From Candidatus Iainarchaeum sp. (GTDB taxonomy: Archaea > Iainarchaeota > Iainarchaeia > Iainarchaeales > JAFCCJ01), in contig JBDRHK010000015.1 of NCBI GenBank assembly GCA_043816965.1, forward strand, positions 1 through 64,000: a stretch of DNA of 64,000 nucleotides, in the 5' to 3' direction. Made by a program: the position numbers. Shown here piece after piece: positions 54,001-63,000 of the stretch. How positions within the stretch are numbered: the stretch's first letter is position 1; each line of letters opens with the position of its first letter.

Positions 54001-57000
54001 GCGCGGCTGTAAAGGCATTTCCTGCCCATCATCCAAGTTCATTTTATCCAATGTCATTTCTCCTAACCTGTGATAATCTTTCACTTTTCCATGCAGGGGA
54101 CACTGACATACTTGATGCCTTCAATAGCATCACTCCTGATATTGCCCTCCTCCCAATAGGCGGGAATATGACAATGGACCTGATTGATGCCGTAAAGGTA
54201 ACCAAAACAATGAAGCCAAGAGCAGCGATACCAATGCACTACAACACATTTGATTTCATAATGGCCGATCCAAGTGAATTCAGCTACAGGATTAATAAGA
54301 GCATATTGAAAACAAAGCCCATTATCCTTGAACCAGGCAAATCATTTTCCCTTGAATAATTCTTCCGCACTTTTCAGGTCTTCCTTATCGCCAATATCTG
54401 CACAGAGCCCATCATAAATTTTAACCATTACTTTCCCTTCTTTGGCGAGGGCATTAATGGCGTCAACAATTTCATACTCCCTGCGCTTGCTCATCTTGAC
54501 TTTTTCTATCTTCTTGAAAATCTTTTCATTGAAGCGGTAAATGCCTGCATTAATTATTTTGGAACTGATACTCCCGAATTCCGGCTTCTCCACAATTTTT
54601 TCCAGCCTCTCTCCCGATAATTCCATAACCCCATATCTCCAGGGGTCATCAACCTCCCTTCCCACAACAACCGCATCAGATGTATCGAATTCATCCTTGT
54701 GGGCAAGGCCCGTTATCAGTTCCTTTTCAACAACAACATCTCCATTCATTACAAGAAAATCGCCCTCACCTATAAACTCCTTTGCAAGCCCGATTGCATG
54801 GGCAGTCCCCAGCTGTTTTTCCTGCCAGAGATAGTTGATGGGAACTCCCCTATAACTTCCCTTGAAATAGTTCTCAACATTTTCCTTCAAATAACCGACA
54901 ACAATCTCAATCTCCCCAATCCCTGCATCCACCAATGAATCAAGAATCCTCTCAAGAATCGGCCTGCCGCCCAACTTAACCATGACTTTTGGGATTCCAT
55001 TTGTAAGGGGCCTTAACCGCACTCCCTTTCCTGCCCCAAGAACAACAGATTTCATCATCACACCTATAATTCAATCTCCATAAGGTCCTTGGCAGCATAG
55101 CTTTGGGCAAAAACCATCCTTGCCTCATTTTCCATTTTTTCGGTTTCCTTATGCCTTGGGGAAATATGGGTCAGGTATAATTTTCCGGCCCCTGCCCTTT
55201 CAGCGAGCCTTGCAACATCCTTAACCATGGAGTGTTTTGTTTCAACAGCACGGGATTTCATCTTTTCGGTGAATGATGATTCATGAATTAAAATATCTGC
55301 CCCGCTAATTTCCTCAAGGTAACTCTCACTCACAACAGTGTCCATCACAACCGCAATCATTTTACCCTTTCTCCCTTTCGAGTAATCCATCACCTGCTCA
55401 GGCTTGAATCTTTTATTGCCGACTTTAACACTCTCTCCCTTTTGCAGTTTGCTCCAAAGAGGCCCCTCAGGAATTTCCAGTTTAAGTGCCGTTTCCCTTG
55501 AAAACTTTCCGGCCTTTCCCTCCTCCCTGAAAACATATCCCCTTGTCGGCACCTCATGCTTCAGTGGAAAGCTGCTTACCTCAAAACCATTGCCATTCAG
55601 GATTACGCCGTTTTTTGCCTCAACACATTTAATCTCGAAATTCGGTTTCAGCCCGATAAGATTAATGCTCTTTTCCACGAATTCCTTTACTCCCTTTGGG
55701 CCATATACCTTGACCGGATAATCCCTCCCATGCAAAGCCATTGTGGCAAACAATCCTGGAAGGCCCAAAACATGGTCTGCATGGAAATGGGAAAGGAAAA
55801 TATTCTGGATTTTCATATAGCTGACCTTTGCCCTAATCATCTGCCTTTGCGTTCCCTCAGCACAGTCAAAAAGGAACCACTCACCATTGAACCTGAGGGC
55901 TATAGAACTCAGGTTTCTGTCCTTCGTGGGGTTGCTGCACCCTGTCCCTAAAAAAATGATTTTCATTTTCTCCATTAGGAATTACTTGCCTGAAAAGATT
56001 TAATAAAGAAATCATGCCTTACTGGAACGATTAACCGCAACATTAGGTTAATTAATTTGTTTATTTACTATTCTAACTATGGCTGAGAAATCCAAATACC
56101 CGGATACCAATAAGATAGAGGTTCCCCGCAAGCTTATTGACCAGGTTATCGGGCAGGAATCTTCAGTGGAGCTTATCCGGAAAGCCGCCGCGCAAAAAAG
56201 AAATGTATTGCTTGTAGGCCTCCCAGGAACTGGAAAATCAATGCTTGCCCAGGCAATGTCTGAAATTCTGCCGATTCAGCGTTTGGTGGATGTCCTAATT
56301 TACCCCAATTCCGAGGATGCCAATACCCCGAAAGTGAGGGTTATGAGGGCAGGAGAGGGGCAGAAAGTTCTCCAACGGGCAAGGCTGGATGCAAAGGGCC
56401 AGGAAGACAATATTAGGCTGATGGGCCTGCTTCTCCCTTTGGGCTGGTTTATAATAACCTGGCTGATGTATGCTGTTTTTGGCTTAATGCATGTGAATGT
56501 TTATGCCGCAAGCCTTATTTTGGGCGGATTCCTTATAGTCGCACTTGCATTAGGGAGCCAGATGAAAATAAGGCAGGGAACAACAATCCCAAAACTCCTA
56601 ATTAACAATGCCGGAAAAAAGATTGCCCCTTTTATTGAGGCAACTGGTGCAAGGGCAGGTGCATTGCTAGGGGATGTAAGGCATGACCCGCTGCAATGTT
56701 TTTACGGCTTTAACGTGCTTTATTTACAAAAAGAAGATCAAAATGGATCTGAATTTGTAGAAAAACCATTTTTAGAGCTTTGGGAAGAAATGTACGAAAA
56801 GTATGGCAAAGAAGTTATACGAAACAGTAAAGGATACGAAGCAATAATGATTCCGCCTGAGGAAAAGATTTATACTTTGGGGCATAAAGATGGCAAGGTC
56901 ATTTTATCAAGAATACTTTCCCTTAACAGACAGCCTTTTGAGGGAGAGCTTGTTGAATTAAAAGTTGGAGATAAGACAGTTTCATTGACGCCAGAGCATA

Positions 57001-60000: not shown

Positions 60001-63000
60001 TGGTTAACAAAATTATTGATGAAAAGAAGGATTATGATGTTTACCTTTTTGAGGGAAGTGCCATTGGGAGGGTTAACGGCCTTGCGGTTTCAGCAGACGG
60101 GGATGCGGGGCTCATCCTGCCCATAGAGGCAGAAGTTGCCCCTGCCCAGAGCAGTGCTGAAGGCAAGCTAATTGCAACCGGAAAGCTTGGGGAGATAGCA
60201 AAGGAAGCTGTGCAGAATGTCTCCGCAATAATAAAGAAATTGAGCGGAAAAGACATTGCCAGCCATGACCTCCATATTCAGTTCCTCCAAACCTACTCAG
60301 GTGTTGAGGGCGACAGCGCGTCAGTTAGTGTTGCAACAGCGGTGATTTCCGCGCTTGAGGGAATTCCTGTAAAGCAGAGCCTTGCAATGACCGGTTCTTT
60401 AAGTGTCAGGGGAGAGGTTCTGCCAGTGGGAGGTGTTACGGCGAAAGTTTCAGCTGCAATCTTTGCTGGATTTAAGGAAGTAATTGTCCCATATGCAAAT
60501 AAGGACGATATTATTCTTCACAAAGAACGCCTGGATAAAATAAAAGTAATTCCCGCAAAAAACCTTTCCGATGTCCTGGAAAATGCATTTGAAAAATCCC
60601 CTAAAAAGAAAAAGTTCATGACCTCCTTGAAAAAACTGCTTCACATCGAACTTTCAAATGTAGTGGAAAAAGTGATTCCCAAAACAGTGGCATGATTAAA
60701 CAATCTGAATTCTTCCGTCGCGGAAAATGAACTCTTTTTTATTAAGTTGGAAATCCTTTTTTGAGCCAAAGCCCTTTACGGCAATTGAATTTTTTGCCTT
60801 TTCAATTTCCCCCACCTTTCCAACCCATTTTCCATCTTTATTGTAAACAGGAAGGCCAATCATCAGTTTTGTGATTTTATCCCTGACCTCAAATACGCCG
60901 GATGCCCAGGTGACTATTAGCGCAACAACAAAGCTTGCAAAGGCGCTCAGGATAAACACATACAAATCTATGTTTTGTATAATAACATGCTTGCCTGCTT
61001 CAAGGACAAAAAGAATCAGAAGCACATAAATCCCGCTGAGGAAATATGTTCTTAAGTAGAACGCCTTCTTGAGGTGAATGGCGTCTATTGCCCTGCCAAT
61101 AAGAAAAACAATTATTGCAAGTGCGCCGAACTCCATAAGCCCGCCCAAACCATTGGCCGCATTATTAACCACATTATCCGTAACCCCTGCAGAATAGTAC
61201 TCGAATAACGCCGTTATAAATTTCGGGTATGCGGTAATGCCCCCGAAGACAAAAAGCAGAAGCACAACAACATATGCAAATACTGAGGTCCTTTGGAGGG
61301 AAAAACTCCTTGCGAAAGAGACCACAAATTTCTCAATTTTTTCCTCAAGCCCAAGCCCCCTCAGAATTGCGTAAAGGCCGACAATGGCTGCAATTATCAT
61401 GATAAAAAGTTCCTGCCTCCCTATCGCATAGAGGATTGCCCCAAAAAGAATTATTATCCCCGGGATGAGAAAGAAAATCCTCGCAAGTGCAGGGTCCTTT
61501 AAGGCGGCCTTTATTGTGTAATATGTGGATTCCACCTGCTTTGCCTGCTTTATTATCAGGATCTCTTTGGAAATTATCGGGAGCCTGCTTTGCAAAATCG
61601 GAATAACCTGGTCATCTTCCGCGCCATCAGTAACCAGGACAAAGCCATCGGCGGGAAAATTCTCCAACACCTTGTCAATCTGCTGATTAATCTTCTTGTC
61701 TGACTCATAATCTGTTTTACCATGCCCTGTAAGGGTCACAATTTCCGCAGCGGCAGAATGCTTCTTTACCTCGTCAAATTTCTTAACCGCGGCAAAAATG
61801 CTGTTTACATCACTATCGGAAGGGTCCTTTATCGCGAGTTTTGCGGCGGCATTAATGTTTGCCTTTCTCCCCAATATCGGGCCGGTAATTCCTGCCTTTA
61901 TCCCGAGGTCGTTGTCCCTATCAACACATACTACGAGAATATTGTTCAGTTCAGCCATTGCAAACAACCCTTAGTAAGTTATTTATATTATTGTTAGCAT
62001 CTAATATAAGTATATTACGGCTATACAAACAATAAAAAAATGCCTTTTTGGGGCCTGAAAATGGATACTGAAAAAATGAAACAGGTTGTATTTTTGGTGG
62101 TGGTTGCCATAATTGCGGCTGCCCTGCTGATTGGCTTATTTGCAATGGATTTCATCATTGCGAATGCGCCAATAATTCTGGGAATTATCTTCATTATAGT
62201 GCTCCTCATAATTCTGCTTAATTTCGGGCTTATTATTTTCCTCAAGGATTATGAAAGGGCAGTAATTTTTCGTTTTGGAAAGGTGAACAGGGTAGGCGGG
62301 CCTGGATGGGCCATAATGATTCCTGTTCTTGAGAGCTTTACAAAAGTTGATACAAGAGTTCACACAATTGATGTAACCAAACAGGACGTGATAACAAAAG
62401 ACGGAATTGAGGTAAGGGCAGATGCGGTAATCTACATCAGGGTTAAGAGGGACAAGCAATCCGTGATAAATTCTGTTATTGAGGTTGAGAATTATGAAAA
62501 GGCGTCATTGCTTTATGTTGTTGCATTAATCCGTGATATTGCGGGTTCACTGGAATTGAATGAACTCATCTCAAATATTGACGCATTGAATAAGCGCCTT
62601 ACCGATGGCCTGGATAAAATTTCCGTAAACTGGGGAGTTGACTGTGAGACCGTTGAAATAAAGGACATCCAAATTCCAAGGCTGGTTCTTGATGCGATGC
62701 ACGAGGAAAAGGCGGCGGTCCAGCAGAAGCTGGCGAGAATGGAATCTGCAAAGGCCCACCAGGCAGAAATTGATGCAGTTAAGGAGGCAGCGGAAAACTT
62801 AAGTGACAGGGCACTTGCATACTATTATGTGAAGGCACTTGAAAAATTGGGGGAAGGGCAGAGCACAAAATTCATTTTCCCAATGGAGCTGACCAAGCTA
62901 GCCTCAGCTGTTAGTGGCGGAGGCTCCAAGAGCGAGGATTTGGAGGAGCTGTTCAGGAAATATGCCCCTGCAATAAAGAAAATCGTCGGTGCAGCGGCAA

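Follow-up and report, generated by a model that had tools for sequence, protein, structure and literature searches.

The window analysed here, a 64,000-nt stretch of DNA from Candidatus Iainarchaeum sp., carries a gene for LonB that is cut at ..HDPLQ/SGGLG.. (the slash marks the junction) by an insertion of 2,700 nt (56697-59396). The gene pieces and the features that lie between them are as follows:

56079-56696, plus strand: LonB N-extein (LonN), 206 aa, with Walker A and a membrane hairpin, C-terminal ..GDVRHDPLQ
56697-57101, plus strand: IntN, 134 codons from Cys1 (CFYGFNV..) to block B (SLTPEHKV), TAG stop at 57099-57101
57155-57640, minus strand: asparaginase-like ORF (cargo), about 161 codons, in-frame TAG at 57449-57451, TGGT and HGTDT motifs kept
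57709-57859, plus strand: long RNA hairpin, fold z-score -5.8
57864-57998, plus strand: micro-ORF, 43-44 codons, start TTG 57864 or ATG 57867, with a conserved ..LTDRELWIL.. motif and an acidic tail
58076-59074, plus strand: free-standing, two-motif LAGLIDADG homing endonuclease gene, 332 aa, with a longer ATG at 57998
59065-59184, plus strand: small hydrophobic ORF, 39 aa, with one weak relative, in L073
59243-59249, plus strand: TATTTAA box, 31 nt 5′ of the IntC ATG
59274-59396, plus strand: IntC, 41 codons with its own ATG, blocks F and G
59397-60695, plus strand: LonB C-extein (LonC), 432 aa and stop, from Ser+1 (SGGLGTPPH), with Walker B, lid and protease domain

LonN matches the PDB LonB chain 4zpx with an E-value of 3e-53 in an alignment that reaches residue 207, and both 4zpx and 3k1j can be aligned as far as ..GDVRHDPFQ/S. 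LonC has matches to the Lon_C and LonB_AAA-LID domains. The NCBIfam LonB model TIGR00764, of 608 positions, is matched by the N piece at profile positions 3-196 and by the C piece at 189-607. The score of the C piece by itself is 642 bits against a cutoff of 516.6, and once the intein is removed the match is full length, as for an archaeal LonB. The break falls inside the AAA+ core, with Walker A on one side and Walker B on the other. LonB is present in single copy in this genome, which is 86% complete. The same-genus genome G152 encodes an unbroken LonB of 638 aa with an empty site at the junction HDPLQ/SGGLG, and the flanks of the insertion are 85% and 87% identical to it at the nucleotide level. 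An initial annotation had reported both the insertion and its absence from this relative; both hold, although the length is 2,700 and not 2,701 nt. The three-ORF layout that it described was likewise recovered, with LonN and IntN in one ORF (56079-57101, 340 aa, in a stop-to-stop frame of 349 aa), the endonuclease at 58076-59074, and IntC and LonC in the third (59274-60695, 473 aa). Its account of the contents of the insertion (IntN, hairpin leader, endonuclease and IntC) stands, but left out the minus-strand asparaginase-like gene, which matches PF00710 on both sides of its TAG and was found at none of 56 related loci. At this locus, the antisense asparaginase-like gene separates the endonuclease cassette from IntN.

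Intein halves and their expression signals

The insertion retains the hallmarks of a class 1 intein, with a Cys1 nucleophile (codon 56697-56699) and the block B TxxH motif (SLTPEHKV) in IntN, and His-Asn/Ser (59391-59399) closing IntC, so that both pieces keep the splicing blocks first noted in them. A profile built from 45 IntN sequences matches the solved inteins 2jmz (E-value 1.3e-7) and 4o1s (0.002) and, together with a confident model of IntN and IntC (pLDDT 85 and 88), this indicates a HINT fold. The IntC alignment contains 12 invariant columns in 29 sequences. When the two halves were modelled as a complex, the ipSAE was 0.85 against 0.00 for the best control, a score that may reflect likeness to solved split inteins; the mark applied to this score is attained by 116 of 157 solved complexes and by 2 of 215 mismatched pairs. 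Three prediction runs share at least 98% of contacts, with a partner pLDDT of 88.

As in naturally split inteins, the halves are separate translation units with one extein fused to each. The TATTTAA box that precedes IntC recurs at 18 of 30 loci, 30-33 nt ahead of the ATG, as compared with a background rate of 0.6% of random 60-nt windows, and a Shine-Dalgarno-like core is found ahead of IntC in only 3 of the 30. We read the box as a putative archaeal promoter of a leaderless IntC-LonC mRNA.

Conservation of the split across Iainarchaeales

A search of 196 genomes with IntN gave matches in 56 (G000 included) at E<=1e-3 and, at E<=1e-19, in 46 other genomes and one contig-edge fragment. The split extends to about 46 other genomes from about 26 of 73 genera, counts that are not independent because the genomes are related, incomplete metagenome bins. 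The frame that holds IntN measures 335-381 aa at 36 of the 49 best places, a set that includes G000, and this repeat agrees with the earlier counts of 47 genomes and 35 of 49 frames. Frames of more than 800 aa had also been reported; those of 827 aa in G159 and 822 aa in G019 are long but still stop after IntN, and their length is explained by a second, contiguous intein that sits in the P-loop of LonN. Once the three contiguous inteins and the more distant matches are kept apart, the IntN frame ends 0-37 codons past the end of homology in all 46 close-IntN loci that could be followed, at TAA in 32, TGA in 9 and TAG in 5. Each IntC has its own ATG, and its frame relative to IntN is 0, 1 or 2 in 11, 7 and 12 of 30 loci, respectively. 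The halves are 923-4,331 nt apart in 30 loci and 288 nt apart in G008, and the space between them often holds unrelated cargo genes, including reverse-strand genes and whole cassettes.

These features bear on whether an RNA intron, ribosomal bypass, stop read-through or another genetic code repairs the interruption, before or during translation, to yield a contiguous precursor. LAGLIDADG genes are common in archaeal and group I introns, the best fold matches of the endonuclease include the intron-encoded I-Tsp061I and I-DmoI, a large structured RNA lies within the gap, and bypass is named as a formal alternative in the accessible part of Dassa 2009 (PMC2677866). However, repair would have to contend with gaps of 288-4,331 nt that contain reverse-strand genes and whole cassettes, with unrelated IntN and IntC frames and with the use of all three stop codons, and the hairpin stands ahead of the endonuclease rather than at the IntN and IntC borders. 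An Rfam search of 56600-59500 detected no intron. We give repair only the slimmest of chances.

Median dN/dS values indicate purifying selection on all five parts of the locus (IntN 0.27, IntC 0.18, endonuclease 0.17, LonN 0.16 and LonC 0.10), restricted to pairs with finite dS (494 of 990 for IntN, 152 of 435 for IntC) because synonymous sites are saturated in most pairs. LonN identity is 55-68% in split and unsplit genomes alike, and LonB is present in 186 of the 196 genomes. If LonB were instead a decaying pseudogene, in which the intein has gained stops and Lon function has been lost or taken over elsewhere, the broken Lon frame would be accounted for; a second copy could be missed in a genome that is 86% complete, and the neighbouring asparaginase-like gene does contain a nonsense codon. 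Decay is nevertheless very unlikely, since about 46 genomes show this same break, with dN/dS of 0.1-0.3 for every part, each half retains its own start and promoter signals, and all 55 high-quality genomes of the order have LonB, including the 17 that carry IntN. The view of the initial annotation, that this appears to be a conserved, naturally split intein and not a fresh pseudogene, is supported by every computational test run: its presence in about 26 genera, the retention of catalytic residues, low dN/dS, separate start and promoter signals, and a single LonB.

Of the 46 IntN sequences, 23 have Cys and 23 have Ser at position 1, and block B reads TPEH or TTEH in 45, the sole miss containing Ns. 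All 30 IntC sequences have the terminal Asn and Ser+1 (HN/S in 24, SN/S in 4, KN/S in 1 and CN/S in 1) and a positive net charge over their first 20 residues; 6 of them have another residue in place of the penultimate His. The loss of this His would be in keeping with Lon pieces that form a non-covalent two-subunit protease, like fragmented phage NrdA, with the intein halves acting only as a dimerisation clamp and not splicing. The docking model requires no chemistry, and endonuclease-fractured genes that function without inteins are cited in the portion of Dassa 2009 (PMC2677866) available to us. A mere clamp, however, would not preserve Cys or Ser at position 1 in 46 of 46, TxxH in 45 of 46 and Asn with Ser+1 in 30 of 30 sequences over about 26 genera, and the break parts Walker A from Walker B within the AAA+ core, all of which makes it improbable. 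Since the arrangement is kept across so many related genera, it most likely works by joining the halves after translation.

The endonuclease, its leader and its origin

The separate LAGLIDADG gene reported between the Lon pieces was corroborated. Both its sequence and its AF2 model (pLDDT 92.4) display two helices, each closed by an acidic residue, and the alpha-beta-beta-alpha-beta-beta-alpha fold of LAGLIDADG homing endonucleases, and the best Foldseek matches are I-Tsp061I, E-DreI, the TliVMA intein endonuclease, I-DmoI and PI-SceI. Its motifs are LGTLFGDGG and AFLDGMLASE, and D102 and E205, which we take to be the catalytic residues, are invariant in 27 of 27 sequences. The protein matches the intein part of NF038162 (E-value 5e-17); searches against the Pfam LAGLIDADG models and, by profile, against PDB sequences gave no match.

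The hairpin and micro-ORF leader described upstream of this gene is likewise substantiated. In addition to its fold z-score, the hairpin shows covariation over 20 loci, with 37 pairs that are 97.6% paired and 17 pairs with compensatory changes, a result equalled by none of 500 shuffles. Its 3′ arm, GGAGGTGG (57851-57858), is the Shine-Dalgarno sequence of the micro-ORF. The micro-ORF peptide, which has no match in Pfam or NCBIfam, is conserved in 14 of 21 loci, and in 4 of the 21 the endonuclease ORF itself starts from this Shine-Dalgarno sequence and start codon. The same leader precedes five other, unrelated free-standing LAGLIDADG genes of this genome.

Where both halves lie on one contig (31 loci), 6 loci lack the endonuclease and 4 have a degraded copy, and all 10 of these loci retain the intein catalytic residues, which speaks for an intein that does not depend on the endonuclease. 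In genus g47, IntN DNA is 83-98% identical, compared with 67-84% for the adjoining LonN DNA; like the empty site in G152, this points to mobility.

In G007, G046 and G015 the same Lon site is occupied by contiguous inteins of 494-498 aa, all three with Thr at position 1. In colinear order, their aa 1-123 align with IntN, aa 124-438 with the endonuclease (30-34% identity, E-values 1e-48 to 1e-53) and the final 20 aa with IntC. The initial annotation spoke of a nested endonuclease cassette; an endonuclease gene does lie between the halves, but it is not foreign to the intein, because contiguous inteins at this Lon site have an endonuclease domain colinear with it. With respect to origin only, a free-standing endonuclease with its hairpin leader might have invaded a mini-intein or split intein, the contiguous forms being later in-frame fusions. 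The occurrence of the leader ahead of the five unrelated endonuclease genes would suit such an invasion, and the model of Dassa (PMC2677866), in the part accessible, permits both directions. In the endonuclease tree, which has long branches and an assumed root, the 27 free-standing genes instead form one clade (100/99) that is sister (99/98) to the three contiguous domains. The outgroup consists of second-site Lon inteins in which the endonuclease is fused to IntN, so that parsimony favours the embedded state as ancestral. Invasion is possible but, in our view, the less probable course, and descent of the free-standing gene from the intein's own domain is the reading taken forward here.

Proposed assembly of LonB and comparison with known systems

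From these sequence comparisons we consider it likely that LonB is made from two separately expressed polypeptides, whose intein halves dock and trans-splice to give normal LonB. A membrane-anchored LonN-IntN polypeptide with Walker A would be joined by an IntC-LonC polypeptide with Walker B and the protease domain, the latter translated from a leaderless mRNA that would start from its own TATA-box promoter. The intein halves would associate as a single HINT fold and carry out trans-splicing at Gln206/Ser, releasing a LonB of about 638 aa. The former LAGLIDADG endonuclease of the intein would now be the free-standing gene between the halves, its translation held down by the hairpin burying the ribosome-binding site of the leader micro-ORF, and it probably continues to carry the three-gene cassette as a whole, by homing, into Lon alleles that are empty. 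At loci with a decayed endonuclease, the split intein persists and unrelated genes gather between its halves.

A wider reading, to which we give an even chance, extends this to a whole DPANN order, in which a single essential LonB would routinely be assembled post-translationally from two separately transcribed pieces; in at least five genomes the pieces would number three, joined by two distinct split inteins, both natural. The intein at the present site (site b) would be a three-gene cassette still homing as a unit by means of its ex-domain endonuclease, under a hairpin and micro-ORF switch that every free-standing LAGLIDADG gene of the genome would share, and cargo genes would have come to use the gap between the halves as a landing pad. 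If true, this amounts to a living series of stages from contiguous intein to unlinked split gene.

The endonuclease shares its fold with I-DmoI, I-Tsp061I, PI-SceI and the TliVMA endonuclease domain (Foldseek E-values 3e-7 to 1e-4) and, like monomeric LAGLIDADG endonucleases, has two motifs with an invariant Asp and Glu, but its N-terminus is extended, unlike that of the I-DmoI type, by a helical region of about 95 aa. Translation of the free-standing phage endonuclease I-TevI is controlled by a hairpin in which its ribosome-binding site is concealed. The Lon leader resembles this control in that a stem sequesters the Shine-Dalgarno sequence just 5′ of a start codon; it differs in that its hairpin measures about 150 nt, what usually follows is a conserved micro-ORF and not the endonuclease, and several unrelated endonuclease genes in one genome have it in common (78-93% nucleotide identity).

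The split inteins of cyanobacterial DnaE and Nanoarchaeum equitans PolB have an IntN of about 100-130 aa and a basic IntC of about 35-41 aa. As with these, an essential single-copy gene is here encoded in two pieces, and IntC begins with a net positive stretch in all 30 Lon sequences. Whereas the DnaE and PolB halves are far apart and have no endonuclease left, the Lon halves lie in one locus, 0.3-4.3 kb apart, a layout that corresponds to the intermediate steps II-III of the model in the accessible portion of Dassa 2009 (PMC2677866). Contiguous LonB inteins of Euryarchaeota, of which ten were counted in the available part of Novikova et al. 2016 (PMC4760082), share the host protein and a LAGLIDADG domain with the intein described here, but they are one-piece, cis-splicing elements.

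Because the definition of a fractured gene given in the accessible text of Dassa 2009 (PMC2677866) fits this Lon locus, we call it a fractured gene. As described there, the host gene is broken at an intein, at the usual endonuclease insertion point, IntN and IntC are separate ORFs with an endonuclease gene between them, a hairpin lies 5′ of the endonuclease, and some loci have no endonuclease. In the same text (Dassa 2009; PMC2677866), the loci are mainly phage-like ocean metagenome fragments with DNA-metabolism enzymes as hosts, the endonucleases are GIY-YIG or Vsr-like, which are not known to occur within inteins, and a LAGLIDADG enzyme in the same role is only predicted. The Lon locus differs in lying on an archaeal chromosome, in having a protease as its host and in the accumulation of cargo genes within a split that is held across an order. 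Its endonuclease is of the intein LAGLIDADG type and homologous to that of contiguous inteins at the same site. What this locus adds to those fractured genes is an archaeal chromosomal location, a Lon host gene and a LAGLIDADG endonuclease of the intein type.

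Interruption of LonB and contents of the insertion

The LonB gene of the window genome is divided between two ORFs, and the NCBIfam model TIGR00764 aligns to the first over profile positions 3-196 and to the second over positions 189-607. The first ORF leaves LonB at ..GDVRHDPLQ, after which the next residue in the solved Thermococcus LonB (4zpx, 3k1j) is the Ser of SGGLGTP. As initially annotated, LonB is uninterrupted in the same genus: genome G152 encodes a single LonB of 638 aa with the junction HDPLQ/SGGLG, and its flanking DNA is 85% and 87% identical to that of the window. 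The insertion reported in the initial annotation is likewise present, with its length corrected from 2,701 nt (56696-59396) to 2,700 nt (56697-59396). No second LonB was found in the window genome, the other match being just a 26%-identical Lon_C-like stretch. Among contigs from three DNA runs, one of 165 nt is identical to the window and spans the junction between extein and N-terminal intein half (IntN) at 56668-56832; the remaining contigs over the locus are short, of low depth and derive mostly from other organisms. No RNA run was listed as covering the stretch. In public records the Lon pieces are annotated as 'ATP-binding protein' or as 'Lon-like ATP-dependent protease', in bins named Candidatus Diapherotrites or Iainarchaeum.

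Features of the interrupted LonB gene in the window
56079-57101, +, LonN-IntN ORF, 340 aa; matches archaeal LonB up to ..GDVRHDPLQ
56697-59396, +, insertion in LonB, 2,700 nt; Cys codon at its start, His-Asn at its end, then Ser
from 56697, +, IntN, 134 codons, CFYGFNV.. via SLTPEHKV to ..LAKILS, then a TAG stop
57155-57640, -, short asparaginase-like gene, about 161 codons
57709-57859, +, hairpin of about 150 nt, fold z-score -5.8
57864-57998, +, micro-ORF
58076-59074, +, endonuclease ORF, 332 aa
59065-59184, +, hydrophobic ORF, 39 aa, overlapping the end of the endonuclease gene
59243-59249, +, TATTTAA box upstream of the IntC ATG
59274-60695, +, IntC-LonC ORF, 473 aa; matches LonB from SGGLGTPPH to its end and begins with the C-terminal intein half (IntC), 41 codons fused to the Lon C part

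The asparaginase-like gene, missing from the initial annotation, lies antisense between IntN and the hairpin. It keeps the TGGT and HGTDT (threonine) motifs, contains a single in-frame TAG (57449-57451) and was found in none of 56 related loci by tblastn mapping; either the gene became a pseudogene recently or the assembly is in error here. The 39-aa hydrophobic ORF has one relative, 55% identical, in the same relative place in another locus (L073). An Rfam search of 56600-59500 at E<=1 returned only CRISPR-DR66, a chance match over the TATA region (25 bits against a gathering score of 45).

Recurrence, separateness and conservation of the intein halves

With IntN as the query, matches were obtained in 56 of the 196 Iainarchaeales genomes at E<=1e-3, including that of the window; at E<=1e-19, 46 other genomes and one contig-edge fragment remain, covering about 26 of 73 genera, which bears out the recurrence in many genera proposed initially. 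The 56 regions were taken and mapped by tblastn; the genomes are incomplete, mutually related metagenome bins, and several loci are truncated by contig edges. The stop after IntN, also part of that proposal, holds elsewhere: once three contiguous inteins and the more distant matches are kept apart, the frame ends 0-37 codons past the homology in every close-IntN locus that could be followed (46 loci; TAA 32, TGA 9, TAG 5). Frames of 827 aa (G159) and 822 aa (G019) also stop after IntN and are long because of a further contiguous intein in the LonN P-loop. A search for longer IntN-bearing proteins, in which a blank would be weak evidence, found one only, of 801 aa, interpreted as the N piece of Lon carrying an additional intein in the P-loop.

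In each of the 30 loci that carry both halves on a single contig, IntC starts at an ATG of its own; its frame relative to IntN is 0, 1 or 2 in 11, 7 and 12 loci, respectively. The halves lie 923-4,331 nt apart in these loci and 288 nt apart in G008. Pfam analysis of 47 gap ORFs of at least 100 aa identified AAA_14/DUF4143 ATPases (3 loci), a Zn_dep_PLPC-like protein (7 loci), a nucleotidyltransferase, aspartate decarboxylase with a WYL protein, an Ldh_2 dehydrogenase, a TPR protein and, between IntN and IntC in G121 (L059), a complete-looking diversity-generating retroelement comprising an Lcl_C target protein, bAvd and reverse transcriptase. Since other genes occupy the gaps, read-through or bypass of the gap is excluded, and gene layout shows the halves behaving like ordinary separate genes. 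In 18 of 30 loci the IntC ATG is preceded by a TATTTAA box that starts 30-33 nt upstream, compared with 0.6% of random 60-nt windows drawn from these loci, and near-variants occur in most of the remainder; a Shine-Dalgarno-like core lies within 20 nt of the IntC start in just three of 30. Judged by its spacing, the box would be an archaeal promoter for a leaderless IntC-LonC mRNA, and a similar box precedes many LonN starts.

Splicing motifs are conserved across the halves. IntN begins with Cys in 23 of 46 sequences and with Ser in 23, and 45 of 46 carry TPEH or TTEH, the single exception containing Ns; IntC ends in HN/S (24 of 30), SN/S (4), KN/S (1) or CN/S (1). A profile of 45 IntN sequences matches solved inteins (2jmz, 1.3e-7). 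Saturation of synonymous sites in most pairs (median pS about 0.78) limits what dN/dS can show on close pairs; the median dN/dS, over pairs with finite dS and with sequences containing N left out, is 0.27 for IntN (494/990 pairs), 0.18 for IntC (152/435) and 0.17 for the endonuclease (95/378), and 0.16 and 0.10 for LonN and LonC. LonB itself was detected in 186 of 196 genomes and in all 55 high-quality ones, and LonN is 55-68% identical to that of the window in split and unsplit genomes alike. A predicted complex of IntN (alignment A1) and IntC (alignment A2) scored an ipSAE of 0.85 against 0.00 for the best control, a score that may show likeness only, split-intein complexes having already been solved; 116 of 157 solved complexes attain the ipSAE mark, as do 2 of 215 mismatched pairs. 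Docking runs agreed in at least 98% of contacts, with a partner pLDDT of 88. IntC carries a net positive charge over its first 20 residues in 30/30 sequences; a rule of opposite charge for whole halves was rejected, as the net charge of IntN ranges from -9 to +9 and consistent basicity is confined to the N-terminal part of IntC. Both halves lack cysteine, with Ser1 and Ser+1, in eight of 29 related loci (L075, L042, L049, L065, L056, L073, L067 and L074), which are candidate natural cysteine-less split inteins within a putative natural split-intein family with Ser+1.

The free-standing endonuclease, its contiguous relatives and its leader

Pfam recognised neither an intein nor a LAGLIDADG family in any of the three ORFs (IntN, IntC and endonuclease), and a profile of 27 endonucleases found nothing among PDB sequences. 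After these blank sequence searches the family was assigned by structure prediction and fold search: the AlphaFold2 model (27 sequences; pLDDT 92.4) has as its best Foldseek matches I-Tsp061I, E-DreI, the TliVMA intein endonuclease, I-DmoI and PI-SceI (E 3e-7 to 1e-4). Asp102 (LGTLFGDGG) and Glu205 (AFLDGMLASE) are invariant in 27/27 sequences, NCBIfam aligns the endonuclease to the intein portion of a model for intein-containing RtcB (E 5e-17), and almost all homologues have an ATG 0-4 codons ahead of the conserved (L/I)(V/I)xEQDIINTY.

In three genomes (G007, G046 and G015) the Lon frame is uninterrupted, 1,124-1,158 aa long, and contains a contiguous intein of 494-498 aa exactly at HDPLQ/SGGLG, which starts with Thr and ends in Ser-Asn or Ala-Asn. 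The first ~120 residues of these inteins align with IntN, the last 20 with IntC, and residues 124-438 with residues 1-330 of the free-standing endonuclease (30-34% identity, E 1e-48 to 1e-53). Therefore, either a single former intein is now represented by the three ORFs or the contiguous inteins formed by fusion of the three. In the endonuclease tree all 27 free-standing genes group together (100/99), and their clade is sister to the three contiguous domains (99/98), a topology that fits a single change of state. The outgroup, endonuclease domains from a second Lon intein site, is itself embedded in inteins, and the tree leans towards fission of a contiguous intein, with long branches and an assumed root.

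The state of the endonuclease varies among the 31 loci that carry both halves on a single contig: it is intact in 20, about 18 codons short in one, broken by a stop or frameshift in two, a fragment in two and absent from six; the splicing residues are kept in all ten loci without a working endonuclease. Within one genus (g47), IntN DNA is 83-98% identical compared with 67-84% for the adjacent LonN DNA, and in one such pair the endonuclease is just 71% identical. Together with the empty G152 site, these identities suggest that the intein was transferred or converted recently, perhaps piece by piece, and its homing would be driven by the endonuclease.

The leader of the endonuclease gene was found in 20 loci by a sequence signature that requires conserved A/T-rich motifs and does not require helix 3. 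Of the 37 pairs in the hairpin alignment, 17 show compensatory changes, including all seven of helix 3, and 97.6% of cells are paired, compared with 55% when the structure is shifted by one column and 40-57% in slid controls; none of 500 shuffles was as good. The hairpin usually starts 5-85 nt past the IntN stop, and 611 nt past it in the window because the asparaginase-like gene lies between. Its 3′ arm, GG(A/G)GG(T/C)G, is followed 6-7 nt on by ATG or TTG, and the stem may hide this ribosome-binding site. In 14 of 21 loci this start opens an ORF of 44-56 aa with the motif ..(T/D)(D/S)RELW(I/V)L.. and an acidic tail; the ORF is degenerate in three, and in four the start opens the endonuclease ORF itself.

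Copies of the window leader (57704-58060) occur elsewhere in the same genome (C25:6411, C86:7711, C5:8321, C66:232, C26:22969, C7:9770 and C15:1024-1189(-)), four at 90-93% identity over 259-351 nt and three at 78-80%. Five sit ahead of free-standing LAGLIDADG_3 genes (301-377 aa) that diverge from one another. Similarity is far higher among the leaders than among their genes, suggesting that leaders were exchanged or evolved in concert. Hairpin and micro-ORF, shared in this way, are a candidate regulatory module for archaeal homing endonuclease genes. Two other cassettes of leader and endonuclease have 3′ ends that run into opposite-strand tRNA genes (L094 2677-2752(-) and L095 2770-2874(-)), one match, of 105 nt, perhaps with an intron. 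At C5:8687-11946, another lies directly upstream of an ORF starting ..FLTGTDEHG, which resembles a methionyl-tRNA synthetase minus its first ~45 residues.

Further LonB intein sites and comparison with fractured genes

A second Lon intein, differently split, is present at TE(A/P)VP/C..HN/CDFVL (LonC residue 71) in seven loci: L044 (G104), L054 (G165), L062 (G009), L067 (G019), L073 (G020), L087 (G183) and L088 (G184). Its N-terminal half is still fused to its own endonuclease domain, and the C-terminal half with the remainder of LonC has an ORF of its own, with a start that overlaps the stop of the ORF before it by 1-13 nt; the G184 intein is a mini version without endonuclease. Five of these genomes (G104, G165, G009, G019 and G020) also have the split at HDPLQ/SGGLG, placing LonB in three ORFs, and appear to need two orthogonal trans-splicing reactions for one protein. 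Further contiguous inteins interrupt the LonN P-loop (L034 in G159 and L067 in G019) and LonC after ..HLRVE/C (L038 in G008, a 990-aa ORF). LonB therefore has at least four intein sites across the order.

Novikova et al. (2016; PMC4760082) count ten contiguous LonB inteins, from Euryarchaeota. Fractured genes, in which a host gene is broken at a split intein with an endonuclease gene between the halves, were defined by Dassa et al. (2009; PMC2677866) from 26 mainly phage-like loci; there the endonucleases are GIY-YIG or Vsr-like, types not known in inteins, and LAGLIDADG and HNH enzymes are said to be able in principle to act alike. On sequence grounds the Lon arrangement is of this kind, and a hairpin precedes the endonuclease in the loci of that account as it does here. 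We found no description of a split or fractured Lon intein, or of fractured genes in DPANN archaea, in the literature outside subscription journals. An intein-type LAGLIDADG endonuclease standing free between split-intein halves fills the gap left open by Dassa et al., and since contiguous relatives occur at this site within the same archaeal order, the step between contiguous and split states is open to study on natural sequences. The Lon case differs from those fractured genes in host domain, host protein, endonuclease family and origin, persistence and build-up of cargo: whereas earlier cases are phage fragments, here a fractured gene for a housekeeping protease is fixed in cellular chromosomes over long evolutionary time, with cargo between its halves.
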